4,065 bases of DNA from a virus (IMGVR_UViG_2695420822_000018); one strand, 5' to 3'. Positions 440 to 4,065 are shown, counted from the first letter of the stretch. Translations and numbers: made by a program. Notes: a model not told the origin generated them from the sequence alone.

Positions 440-859
440 TTATTCCGGTGGGGGATTATCTTTAATCCTGCCTCTCAAATATTTTTCTACATACTCATCG
501 ATTTCTTTTAGCCGGACTTCAAATAGCTCAATCATTCGTTGTTGTTCTGAGCCCGGTAGCTGGTTAAACAACTCAAGAAGTTTTCGTTGGGATTCATTTA
601 ACCACAATTCAGAAGATTCCTGTTCTCCAAAGAGGAGCTCAGGAGGAGATATGCCAAGTGCCTTTCCCAATACGACAGCGTCATGTACTCCAACATTTCT
701 GCTGCCCGCCTCATAGTTACCTATACGCGATTGCGTCCATCCGCAGATTTCAGCAAGTTTTCCTTGAGATAAACCAAGCTTCTGCCTGCGCTCTTTAAGA
801 CGCATTGCAATTTTGTCATTGAGCCTACTAGCGGCAATTTTTTCGTTTTCTTTTTCCAT
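440..859 (-). CDS. Prophage repressor, HTH XRE family, DicA/CI-like, 139 aa, with no LexA-like S24 peptidase domain
   Basis: ATG at 859-857 preceded by AAGGA; stop TAA at 442-440. N-terminal HTH (LGLSQGKLAEICGWTQSRIGNYEAGSR). The C-terminal motif LLELFNQLPGSEQ resembles the DicA motif LELLELFNALPESEQ as I recall it. Divergent to a Cro-like gene, the classic immunity layout. Confidence 0.85.
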   Translation of the reverse strand: MEKENEKIAASRLNDKIAMRLKERRQKLGLSQGKLAEICGWTQSRIGNYEAGSRNVGVHDAVVLGKALGISPPELLFGEQESSELWLNESQRKLLELFNQLPGSEQQRMIELFEVRLKEIDEYVEKYLRGRIKDNPPPE

Positions 860-955: not shown

Positions 956-1198
956 ATGAACAAAATTTCAACATATCGAAAACAGCTTGGGCTGTCTCAA
1001 AGACAACTTGCTGTTCAGTTAGGGTGGATACAAAGCCGACTGGCAAATTACGAAGCAAATTTTCGTACCCCTGGACTAGAGGAGTGCAGAAAAATTGTTT
1101 CTACCCTTAATCGGCTTGGCGCTCATTGTGGACTTGACGATGTATTCCCCCCAGACGGTAAGCATAGCGAAAACAGCATAGGAGCGGTTGATTCATGA
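956..1198 (+). CDS. Cro-like HTH XRE transcriptional regulator, 80 aa
   Basis: ATG at 956 with GGAGG 6 nt upstream. The HTH segment LGLSQRQLAVQLGWIQSRLANYEA is near-identical in pattern to the repressor HTH. The stop TGA (1196-1198) overlaps the ATG (1195-1197) of the next gene as ATGA. Confidence 0.8.
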   Translation: MNKISTYRKQLGLSQRQLAVQLGWIQSRLANYEANFRTPGLEECRKIVSTLNRLGAHCGLDDVFPPDGKHSENSIGAVDS

Positions 1199-1331
1199 AA
1201 ATCAGGCATGAGCACATCGAATCAGTGTTGTTAGCCCTGGCAGCCGAAAAAGGGCAGGCGTGGGTCGCTAACGCAATTACTGAAGAATATCTGCGCCAGG
1301 GGGGCGGCGAATTGCCCCTTGTACCAGGCAA
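1195..1331 (+). pseudogene. 5' fragment (about 45 codons) of a YdaT/CII-like gene, cut off by the N run at 1332
   Basis: Seen in sequence: in-frame translation MKIRHEHIESVLLALAAEKGQAWVANAITEEYLRQGGGELPLVPG. Nucleotides 1189-1331 are about 99% identical to 1626-1767, the start of the longer copy. Confidence 0.5.
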
Positions 1332-1336
1332 NNNNN
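1332..1336. other. Run of 5 N (assembly gap or ambiguity)
   Basis: Seen in sequence. Sequence homology to the second ydaT-like copy stops exactly at this gap. Confidence 0.95.
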
Positions 1337-1420
1337 TTTTTCATATTAGGGAATTCTAATTTTTCTTGACTTAGGTTTCTCTACGATCTAGTTTCCTTAG
1401 GAAAATCTAAGGAGCTCGAT
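1337..1420 (+). promoter_or_regulatory. Candidate promoter and operator region for the DicC-type gene
   Basis: Seen in sequence: TTGACT (1366-1371), 17-bp spacer, TAGTTT (1389-1394); palindrome TTCCT-t-AGGAA (1393-1403); RBS AAGGAG (1409-1414) 6 nt before the ATG at 1421. Function is inference. Confidence 0.3.
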
Positions 1421-1648
1421 ATGTTGAAAATTGATGCTATAGCGTTTTTTGGCAGCAAAACAAAGCTTGCCAATGCCGCAGGAGTTAGGCTGGCAAGCAT
1501 TGCTGCATGGGGGGAACTGGTTCCTGAAGGTCGCGCGATGCGCCTGCAAGAGGCATCTGGCGGGGAACTTCAGTACGACCCCAAAGTTTATGACGAATAT
1601 CGTAAGGCAAAACGACCTTGGAAGGTGATTCATGAAAATCAGGCATGA
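1421..1648 (+). CDS. dicC: DicC-type (YdaS/DicC family) Cro-like regulatory protein, 75 aa
   Basis: Good RBS. The translation MLKIDAIAFFGSKTKLANAAGVRLASIAAWGELVPEGRAMRLQEASGGELQYDPKVYDEYRK closely matches my recollection of E. coli Qin prophage DicC (76 aa). Its 3' end overlaps the start of the ydaT-like gene by 17 nt. Confidence 0.8.
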   Translation: MLKIDAIAFFGSKTKLANAAGVRLASIAAWGELVPEGRAMRLQEASGGELQYDPKVYDEYRKAKRPWKVIHENQA

Positions 1649-2053
1649 GCACATCGAATCAGTGCTGTTGCCCTGGCAGCCGAAAAAGGGCAGGCGTGGG
1701 TCGCTAACGCAATTACTGAAGAATATCTGCGCCAGGGGGGCGGCGAATTGCCCCTTGTACCAGGCAAGGACTGGAACAATCAGCAGAATATCTATCACCG
1801 TTGGTTGAAAGGTGAAACGAAAGCGCAAAGGGAAAAAATTCAGAAACTGATCCCTGCGGTTCTGGCAATTCTTCCGCGTGAGCTGCGTCACCGACTCTGT
1901 ATCTTCGATACCCTGGAACGCCGTGCATTACTGGCGGCGCAGGAAGCGTTGAGTACGGCAATTGATGCGCATGATGATGCAGTCCAGGCCGTTTACCGGA
2001 AAGCGCATTTCAGCGGCGGCGGGTCTTCCGACGATTCTGTCATTGTTCATTAN
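1632..2053 (+). CDS. YdaT/CII-like protein (about 140 aa), disrupted here by a 1-bp deletion near 1670 and with an ambiguous stop codon (taN at 2051-2053)
   Basis: ATG at 1632 with AGGTGA RBS. Frame 0 stops at 1806-1808 after 58 codons; the first copy (1195-1331) is intact across the same stretch (gttgttagccctgg versus gctgttgccctgg). Downstream frame 2 (track ORF 1748-2071) continues to ...AHFSGGGSSDDSVIVH. The YdaT family call is from position after the Cro-like gene, size and recollection, not from a search. Confidence 0.6.
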
Positions 2054-2159
2054 GTTGAGTACGGCAATTGATGCGCATGATGATGCTGTCCAGGCCGTTT
2101 ACCGGAAAGCACATTTCAGCGGTGGTGGGTCGCCCGGCGATTCTGTCGTAGTGCATTGA
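2054..2159. repeat. Divergent duplicate of the last 35 codons of the ydaT-like gene (about 90% identical to 1948-2053)
   Basis: Seen in sequence: 106 bp aligning to 1948-2053 with about 11 substitutions, mostly at third codon positions, ending in TGA. It is joined to copy 1 through a single N at 2053. Confidence 0.7.
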
Positions 2160-2248
2160 TTGAAATTAATCGTGCCGGATTGTTTTGTTCGGTATCAGTT
2201 AAATGTAACGCTGCGAGCGTTACAAGGTGAAAACAAATGGCTTCAAAC

Positions 2249-2259: not shown

Positions 2260-2375
2260 CGCAGGAAGCGTTGAGTACGGCAATTGATGCGCATGATGAT
2301 GCAGTCCAGGCCGTTTACCGGAAAGCGCATTTCAGCGGCGGCGGGGCTTCCGACGATTCTGTCATTGTTCATTAA
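2260..2375. repeat. Third copy of the ydaT-like 3' end (about 99% identical to 1938-2053), ending in TAA 12 bp before the O-like gene
   Basis: Seen in sequence: 116 bp with one substitution relative to 1938-2053 (gggtcttcc versus ggggcttcc). This is probably the true 3' end that adjoins the replication gene. Confidence 0.7.
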
Positions 2376-2387
2376 GCAAAAGTTTCC

Positions 2388-3587
2388 ATGCTGTTTGTGC
2401 TTATTCTAAGCAACCGGGCAGCATCATACGGGGCAATTATGGCCGCATTACCATACATGCAACTGTACATAGCTGATTACCTGGCTGACACCATGCATTT
2501 GTCAGCAGAGGAGCACGGCGCGTATTTGTTGCTGATGTTCAATTACTGGCAAACAGGAAAGCCAATACCCAAAAACAGGTTGGCAAAAATTGCCCGTCTG
2601 ACTAACGAGCGATGGGTTGATGTTGAACCATCCTTGCGGGAGTTTTTTTGTGATAACGGCGACGAATGGATGCATCTTCGGATTGAGGAAGATCTGGCAT
2701 CTGTCAGAGAAAAATTAACCAAAAAATCAGCCGCAGGAAAAGCATCTGTTCAGGCCAGAAGAAGCAGAAAGGAAGCAGATGTTCAAACAAAACAAGAGAG
2801 AAATTTAACAGGTGTTCAAACAGATGTTGGAGTGATGTTCGAACATGATGCCAACACAAAGGCAACTAATAAAGATACAGATAAAGATCTAAAAACAGAT
2901 CTAACCCATCCCAAACCCTTCCCTTCCGGAAGGGAGTTTCGGGATTTTGTGGCTGGAGTGCTTGAGGGGAGATTATCTGGCGGTACTGCAGCGGAATTTT
3001 GTAATTCTGCGGTGGTTGCGTTGCAGGCTGCTGGCCTGGATGTCTGTCGTGAGTATCCGGTGCCAGAGCGTGGTGACGGTTGCGGAGGGCGGATTGATAT
3101 CGTCGTGACTGACAGGAACGGTGTCCGGTGTGGGAGCGAGCTTGACCGAAATTCTCCGCGACAGAAATCACTGCTCAAAATCGGTGCTGTTGAAACCGGG
3201 ATATGTGTCTTGCGGCGCAGTGATATCGCAAGGCACACCGAGCAGGGAATTCTGGTTATCGGTGGGGCTGTTCGCCAGAAAAAATTTGACCCGTTGTCAG
3301 TTGATCTGCCCGACTGGTTGCCAGAAACACTCTGGCATGAGTGGGTCCAGTTCAGGCAGGCATTGCGAAAACCGATTCGAACGGAGCAGGGCGCTAACGG
3401 GGCGATACGGGAACTGGAAAAATTCCGTCAGCAGGGTTTTACACCTGAGCAGGTGATTCGACACAGCATCGCCAATGAATACCAGGGTCTGTTCGCGCCG
3501 AAAGGTGTTCGGCCTGAGACGTTGCTCCGACAGGTTAACACCGTCTCGTTGCCGGACAGTGCGATCCCGCCAGGCTTCAGGGGGTAA
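2388..3587 (+). CDS. O-like replication initiation protein: DUF1376 (YdaU-like) N-domain, K/D/T-rich linker, Cys-containing central segment, DnaT-like C-terminal tail
   Basis: Long ORF, stop TAA at 3585-3587. An alternative start at 2439 (MAALPYMQLY...) is plausible because the first 17 residues (MLFVLILSNRAASYGAI) are hydrophobic and atypical. The C-terminus ...RQVNTVSLPDSAIPPGFRG matches the E. coli DnaT C-terminus (...RDVNTVSEPDSQIPPGFRG) as I recall it. It sits immediately upstream of the DnaC-like gene. Confidence 0.85.
   Translation: MLFVLILSNRAASYGAIMAALPYMQLYIADYLADTMHLSAEEHGAYLLLMFNYWQTGKPIPKNRLAKIARLTNERWVDVEPSLREFFCDNGDEWMHLRIEEDLASVREKLTKKSAAGKASVQARRSRKEADVQTKQERNLTGVQTDVGVMFEHDANTKATNKDTDKDLKTDLTHPKPFPSGREFRDFVAGVLEGRLSGGTAAEFCNSAVVALQAAGLDVCREYPVPERGDGCGGRIDIVVTDRNGVRCGSELDRNSPRQKSLLKIGAVETGICVLRRSDIARHTEQGILVIGGAVRQKKFDPLSVDLPDWLPETLWHEWVQFRQALRKPIRTEQGANGAIRELEKFRQQGFTPEQVIRHSIANEYQGLFAPKGVRPETLLRQVNTVSLPDSAIPPGFRG
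2743..2905. repeat. Iteron-like repeats (core TGTTC/TGTTG at 2747, 2780, 2813, 2825, 2836) followed by an AT-rich tract with two AGATCT palindromes; candidate phage origin inside the O-like gene
   Basis: Seen in sequence: cagatgttcaaaca, caggtgttcaaaca, cagatgttgg and gtgatgttcgaaca with 33-33-12-11 bp core spacing, then aaagatacagataaagatctaaaaacagatct. Established knowledge: the lambda origin lies inside the O gene and consists of iterons plus an AT-rich region. Origin function here is inference. Confidence 0.4.
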
Positions 3588-3593
3588 CAGACC

Positions 3594-4065
3594 ATGAAAA
3601 ATATTGCGACAGGAGGCGTTCTGGAGCGTATCCGCAGACTGACCCCACCACATGTAACCGCCCCATTCAGAACGGTTGCGGAGTGGCGCGAGTGGCAACT
3701 TGCTGAAGGCCAGAAACGTTGCGAGGAGATCAACCGCCTGAATCGTCAGTTGCGGGTGGAAAAAATCCTGAACCGCTCCGGCATCCAGCCGTTGCACCGG
3801 AAGTGTTCGTTTGCGAATTACCGGGCGCAGAACGACGGTCAGCGACATGCACTGAGTCAGGCGAAATCCATAGCTGACGAACTGATGACAGGCTGTACGA
3901 ATTTTGTGTTCAGCGGTAAGCCCGGCACCGGAAAAAATCATCTTGCAGACGCGATTGGCAACCGGCTGATGGCGAAGGGGCGTAGCGTGATTATCGTCAC
4001 CGTGTCCGATGTCATGAGCGTGTTGCATGAGAGCTACGACAACGGCAAATCCGGTGAAAAATTTT
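3594..4065 (+). CDS. DnaC-family replicative helicase loader (prophage paralog); 5' partial, continues past the window end
   Basis: ATG at 3594 with AGGGGG RBS. The translation MKNIATGGVLERIRRL...NRSGIQPLHRKCSFANYRAQNDGQRHALSQAKS...FSGKPGTGKNHLADAIGNRLMAKGRSVIIVTVSDVM aligns closely with E. coli DnaC, including the Walker A motif GKPGTGKN. No stop codon before the window end. Confidence 0.92.
   Translation, partial: MKNIATGGVLERIRRLTPPHVTAPFRTVAEWREWQLAEGQKRCEEINRLNRQLRVEKILNRSGIQPLHRKCSFANYRAQNDGQRHALSQAKSIADELMTGCTNFVFSGKPGTGKNHLADAIGNRLMAKGRSVIIVTVSDVMSVLHESYDNGKSGEKF

Follow-up and report, generated by a model that had tools for sequence, protein, structure and literature searches.

Can two Cro-type genes, each running into the same downstream gene, follow one another in a single lambdoid prophage, or does this order exist only in an assembly? 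The question arises from a stretch of 4,065 nt (hereafter the window), in which an XRE-type gene in the Cro position and a dicC gene are each followed by the 5′ end of ydaT. A preliminary description had offered two readings: a scaffold that joined or collapsed two related prophages with different immunity modules, and a real tandem duplication of the module. We conclude with great confidence that the tandem Cro modules are a scaffold artefact, in which two related cryptic prophage loci were merged at the ydaT gene that they have in common. These are termed locus A and locus B. They are the immunity-replication regions of Rac-like lambdoid cryptic prophages, in which repressor and Cro form a divergent switch, and the genes for YdaT, the CII equivalent, and for O/P-like replication proteins come next (PMC9986795, PMC5917428). 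YdaT is a functional equivalent of CII (PMC9986795), and the roles of cI, cro and cII have been argued from genetic context (PMC5917428).

Repeated ydaT segments and the genes around them

The duplication is present as originally described. The first copy of the ydaT 5′ segment (1189-1331, plus strand, 143 nt) and the second (1626-1767, plus strand, 142 nt) are about 99% identical, and a repeat finder returned one SNP and one 1-bp indel between them. Segment 1189-1232 differs from 1626-1669 at one position (T1228 against C1665), the first copy has an extra base (A1233), and from there 1234-1331 and 1670-1767 form an exact 98-nt repeat. A 98-nt exact repeat in 4 kb cannot have arisen by chance. 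In the first copy the ydaT start codon lies at 1195, the first 137 nt of the gene are in an intact frame, and the A-type allele is found at 6/6 discriminating sites. It was also described as stopping at a run of N, and indeed its last base is 1331 and the N run occupies 1332-1336. The second copy carries C1665 and the 1-bp deletion and is frameshifted. We considered the deletion as a sequencing error, a reading we rejected because the same allele (C1665 plus the deletion) occurs in locus B of the Shigella sonnei 53G chromosome, a finished sequence, and many contigs without interruption carry it too.

The preliminary description was confined to this duplication. Two further N runs lie at 2053 and 2249-2259, and around them the ydaT 3′ end occurs in three copies (1938-2052, 2054-2158 and 2260-2374), each delimited by an N run. 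Identity is 99% between the first and third of these, and 2054-2157 matches both at 90%. The ydaT core, 1768-1937, occurs once in the window.

Locus A has the gene order HTH_3 repressor, XRE cro, ydaT, ydaU, ydaV, and locus B the order dicA, dicC, ydaT and a different replication gene. The locus A repressor gene (440-859, minus strand) encodes 139 aa, occupies the cI/RacR/DicA position and matches the HTH_3 family (PF01381, 49.4 bits). Its match to the DicA subfamily is weak and falls under the cutoff, and it is annotated as a helix-turn-helix protein in Escherichia coli VL40 and FDAARGOS_944. Divergent from it, across a 96-nt intergenic region, lies the Cro-position gene of locus A, here croA (956-1198, plus strand). 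It encodes 80 aa of XRE/HTH_3 type (PF01381, 39.3 bits against a cutoff of 23), with a further match to PHROG 3, transcriptional repressor, and its stop codon overlaps the start of ydaT. The Cro-position gene of locus B is dicC (1421-1648, plus strand, 75 aa), a P22-Cro-type gene whose product scores 153.8 bits with NCBIfam NF007282 (cutoff 130) and 49.7 bits with P22_Cro, PF14549 (cutoff 30.2). The difference between the two Cro partners, already part of the first description, is borne out by these profile scores, which lie above their cutoffs. The exact DicC protein adjoins dicA in nine finished chromosomes among the matches listed. The DicA-type repressor of locus B is 135 aa long and divergent from dicC, and the names dicA and dicC are those given to the homologues in phage and E. 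coli records.

Direct comparison found no detectable similarity between the croA and dicC proteins, and the repressor/cro intergenic regions of the two loci could not be aligned. Because the two repressors are only 30% identical and the Cro-position proteins are unrelated, the two prophages are very probably heteroimmune, as judged from sequence. The palindromes ATCACGAATCGTGAT (871-885) and AACACAAGGTGTGTT (917-931) are located in the locus A repressor/cro intergenic region and a third, AACACGCAATGTGTT (342-356), downstream of the repressor gene; all three are candidate operators for the switch of locus A. A scan against Rfam gave no matches, and a promoter/terminator scan gave no enrichment over shuffles.

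Directly after the Cro-position gene sits ydaT. The locus A YdaT of the window has a close, intact homologue in E. coli VL40 (L001), and that protein matches PF06254 at 44.4 bits (cutoff 21). The 53G locus A protein (L082), identical over window positions 1195-1331, matches PHROG 163, "CII-like transcriptional activator", at 127 bits. Downstream lie ydaU (2388-3587, plus strand, 399 aa, DUF1376/O-like) and the 5′ part of the DnaC-like ydaV (3594-4065, plus strand), both assigned from Pfam, NCBIfam and PHROG profile matches. The 399-aa ydaU frame is composite, with an N-terminal DUF1376/primosomal-type part and a C-terminal O-like part. The segment in between (about aa 172-276, numbered on the 382-aa form) matches a different PHROG of unknown function and gave no family match in a Pfam scan. 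In both E. coli VL40 and FDAARGOS_944, PGAP splits ydaU into two partial pseudogenes, though the frame is open.

Three gaps, four pieces and two finished loci

The three N runs, of 5 N (1332-1336), 1 N (2053) and 11 N (2249-2259), divide the window into four sequence pieces, c1 to c4. The first, c1 (1-1331), is the left arm of locus A and contains the repressor gene, croA and the first 137 nt of ydaT, where it stops at the N gap. The gap at 1332-1336 lies between this locus A piece and a locus B piece, c2 (1337-2052). The latter opens with TTTTTCAT, which reads in reverse complement as the start of dicA (its first 8 nt) and forms a dicA stub on the minus strand (1337-1344). This is followed by the dicA/dicC intergenic region (1345-1420), dicC and a ydaT with a −1 frameshift. 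The end of c2 comes one base before completion of the ydaT stop codon, and the single N at 2053 stands in place of the last base of that codon. Next, c3 (2054-2248, plus strand) holds the ydaT 3′ end of locus B with its stop at 2157-2159, then the locus B spacer, and in its tail (2237-2248) the first 4 codons of the locus B replication-region ORF. Beyond the gap at 2249-2259, c4 (2260-4065, plus strand) is the right arm of locus A, with a ydaT 3′ end (stop 2373-2375), ydaU and ydaV.

All three junctions coincide exactly with N runs, and redundant sequence lies on the flanks of each. Genes are cut arbitrarily at these junctions: ydaT after 137 nt, dicA down to its first 8 nt, ydaT again one base before its stop and the locus B ORF after 4 codons. 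The gaps differ in length (5, 1 and 11 N), each with duplicated flanks. The artefact is thus not limited to 1189-1768 but includes two more gap junctions downstream.

We located the two loci in S. sonnei by exact-protein look-up. In the finished chromosome HE616528.1, which is that of S. sonnei 53G (PMC10673971), locus A lies at about 1.957 Mb in reverse orientation and locus B at about 0.777 Mb in forward orientation, some 1.18 Mb apart. The same two loci are found about 1.1 Mb apart in the finished CP061367.1. E. coli FDAARGOS_944 also has both, 716 kb apart, with repressor, XRE cro, ydaT, ydaU and ydaV at 5.01 Mb and dicA, dicC, ydaT and another replication ORF at 4.29 Mb. The expectation that one genome holds at least two versions of this region is supported, as finished S. 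sonnei chromosomes carry both, 1.1-1.2 Mb from each other.

The pieces of the window match these separate loci. Compared with 53G locus A (L082 4277-4362 and 4456-5702), c1 is 100% identical except for a 95-nt deletion at 86/87, and c4 has one mismatch (G2346) in 1806 nt. Compared with 53G locus B (L093), c2 is 100% identical over 1337-1731, and c3 is 100% identical both to 53G locus B (L093 5528-5722) and to locus B of E. coli FDAARGOS_944. Moreover, each locus can be rebuilt from the window. Removal of 1332-1767 and 2053-2374, with the 95-nt deletion restored, yields 53G locus A over 3,402 nt with 2 mismatches, at window positions 1879 and 1900. Joining 1337-1947 to 2054-2248 yields an uninterrupted draft contig of locus B (L018) with 0 mismatches in 806 nt; the same join has 4 mismatches against 53G locus B. 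Since both loci can be rebuilt from the pieces, two separate loci with a common ydaT account for the window down to the last base.

The order seen in the window is itself absent from the 5,426 complete E. coli genomes and from the finished S. sonnei chromosomes examined. The best place among the former covers only 89% of the window, and what it lacks is exactly 1337-1625 and 2158-2248 together with the redundant copies. As coverage does not exceed 89% and what is missing is the inserted material, no complete E. coli genome has the tandem order. Of the two readings first offered, the joining or collapse of two prophages thus agrees with pieces that match separate finished loci at about 100%, whereas the real tandem duplication is contradicted by an order absent from every finished genome examined.

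Taken together, the features by which a collapsed repeat is recognised are present: N at the junctions, redundant flanks with a single core, separate loci in finished genomes and junctions that are not reproduced between assemblies. The window is a scaffold of a short-read draft assembly, almost certainly of S. sonnei or a near-identical Escherichia/Shigella lineage, in which two paralogous Rac-like cryptic prophage regions are flattened into one line. The two loci have different left arms, different right arms and a nearly identical ydaT. The assembler would have collapsed the shared ydaT core (about 1768-1937), assembling it once, and the four arms would have remained as separate short contigs. 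Scaffolding or gap filling would then have set the arms in line, with small residual gaps and duplicated flanks. Collapse of the core is evident from the composition of the pieces; for the software we infer a collapse of the repeat and, after it, scaffolding by paired reads or the filling of gaps. Placing the arms one after another would account for the ydaT redundancy at each gap flank, and the succession Cro, ydaT fragment, DicC, ydaT is therefore not a structure of DNA. An overlap of de Bruijn unitigs was also considered, as c1 runs 98 nt past the last A-specific base, which fits k = 99. This reading was dropped because the remaining contig ends stop 33 and 43 nt short of the first discriminating base, and no single k fits.

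Other drafts, ydaT haplotypes and rival explanations

Junctions in related drafts are not those of the window. The IMG/VR contig L011 has the same starting base as the window, is 99.7-100% identical and likewise interleaves the left arms of A and B. Its junction runs from ydaT nt 248 through a single n to dicA nt 160, unlike that of the window (ydaT nt 137, dicA nt 8). The near-identical drafts L076, L077/L087, L080 and L081 have croA, ydaT and ydaU contiguous, without dicC. Draft L086 concatenates locus A with part of locus B in a different way, across a single n, and in draft L089 dicC-ydaT is joined to the ydaU of locus A with no N between. Several other public S. sonnei drafts have different mis-joins at the same place. 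As the junctions shift between near-identical assemblies and are always at N, they are contig ends and not biological joints.

The exact ydaU protein is found mostly on contigs of 2-5 kb (276/319 index blocks), so that this IS-flanked region is routinely fragmented in drafts. The window, L011, L078 and L081 all begin at the identical base; in finished S. sonnei, a DDE_3 (IS630-type) transposase gene ends 72 nt away from it. This shared start is probably an IS boundary.

The 95-nt deletion at 86/87 relative to 53G cuts a DUF1391 gene (minus strand, about 74-134) to 18 codons. The interval of about 130 nt in which it falls is common to loci A and B at 93-100% identity, and drafts L081 and L079 have other deletions in it (100 and 106 nt); no deletion was found there in the finished genomes examined. 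The 95 nt seem to have been lost when a gap was wrongly closed, and not by a real deletion.

To follow the alleles of ydaT we tabulated haplotypes at 19 sites that separate the A and B copies of 53G. Finished S. sonnei chromosomes, among the matches listed, have a pure A or a pure B ydaT with matching arms. Haplotypes mixing A and B alleles were found in drafts only, in several patterns, one of which (croA-BBAAAABBA...-A right arm) recurs in five drafts. By 53G alleles, c2 reads B (1665 and the indel), A (1732-1756), B (1879 and 1900) and A (1981-2052), its last 72 nt thus carrying locus A alleles. However, c2 is not simply a random consensus chimera, a reading that we kept only in part, since long stretches of it are found elsewhere. 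The uninterrupted locus B contig L018 matches 1337-1980 without a difference, and in five drafts (including L076, L077, L080 and L081) the ydaT that separates croA from ydaU has exactly the sequence of 1626-2052. Only the crossover from B to A inside the shared stretch of c2 is clearly non-contiguous. The mixed haplotypes reflect either consensus mixing of the collapsed repeat or gene conversion between prophages about 1.2 Mb apart. Gene conversion could have occurred; it is a weaker claim than the real tandem order, and a more likely one.

Natural recombination within ydaT is seen in other prophages. In 23 IMG/VR contigs the XRE cro is paired with a right arm of B type and the alleles cross over within ydaT; this combination is a common natural mosaic in which ydaT serves as the crossover linker. 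Among the IMG/VR loci L037-L075, from E. coli prophages, most B-type right arms are paired with an XRE cro left arm, and in the ydaT of these loci A-type alleles give way to B-type ones between nt 271 and 350.

A one-base disagreement exists in the overlapping ends of c2 and c4, which read T2024 and G2346. All reference A and B loci carry T at this site, and G2346 is private to the window. The disagreement could stem from a third ydaT-bearing locus or from an error near a contig end.

An explanation different from the collapse of two loci of one genome is that the immunity modules came from two strains in one sample and that the scaffold merges strain variants. Such a mixture could produce both the T/G disagreement at 2024/2346 and the ydaT haplotypes that combine A and B alleles. 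However, 53G, CP061367.1 and FDAARGOS_944 each carry both loci at 100% or near-100% identity, which makes a second strain unnecessary, and NCBI and IMG record the sister assemblies that share these features as genomes of isolates. We therefore consider a mixed template most improbable, and both loci would reside in one genome.

The remaining explanation is that the tandem is real, recombination between prophages having put the dicA stub, dicC and the ydaT 5′ end into locus A. The N runs would then be merely short ambiguous stretches, and two Cro-type modules would stand serially in one prophage. If true, this would be a composite S. sonnei prophage in which two non-homologous Cro-type genes precede, in series, a single replication module. 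The order A-left, B-left, ydaT, A-right is shared by the window and L011, L089 has a dicC-ydaT-ydaU arrangement with no N between, and ydaT is a genuine natural linker for recombination, as the 23 croA contigs with B-type right arms attest. The same relative order in two assemblies and the L089 join could hint at a real rearranged lineage. Against this, the window and L011 junctions fall at different places in ydaT and dicA, in both cases at N, and the combination of redundancy and N recurs twice downstream, so that three independent, unsequenceable illegitimate junctions would be needed. Likewise, dicC-ydaT-ydaU of locus A is found in 0/5,426 complete E. coli genomes. With two separate loci accounting for every base, and with the order missing from the finished chromosomes of both species, a real tandem is extremely unlikely.

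Comparison with known systems

The merging of loci A and B in the window resembles the collapsed-repeat artefacts known from short-read assembly. In these, contigs end at repeat boundaries, the core is present once and the arms lie side by side, as in the window, and drafts of one clone break at differing coordinates, as they do here. Nothing essential is different. The main value of this analysis is in quality control of annotation. The truncated or duplicated ydaT fragments, the 8-nt dicA stub, the apparent operon with two Cro genes and, probably, the loss of 95 nt from the DUF1391 gene are not to be annotated or read as biology. Moreover, where lambdoid immunity regions share a conserved linker gene, short-read scaffolds are systematically led astray.

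The underlying biology belongs to established lambdoid mosaicism, for which two prophages with different immunity modules in one genome and a ydaT linker are already known. Locus A has the gene order and roles of Rac of E. coli K-12 (racR/ydaS/ydaT/ydaU/ydaV) and of its counterpart CP-933P. In contrast to Rac, the Cro-position protein of locus A is of HTH_3/XRE type and was not among the hits of the YdaS family (PF15943), the place of RacR is taken by an HTH_3 repressor resembling DicA, and the ydaU of the window has an extra middle segment. Locus B corresponds to the dicA-dicC switch of Qin (Kim) in having a divergent DicA-type repressor together with DicC. The two differ in what follows dicC: at this position Qin has dicF/dicB, whereas locus B continues with ydaT and Rac-like replication genes.
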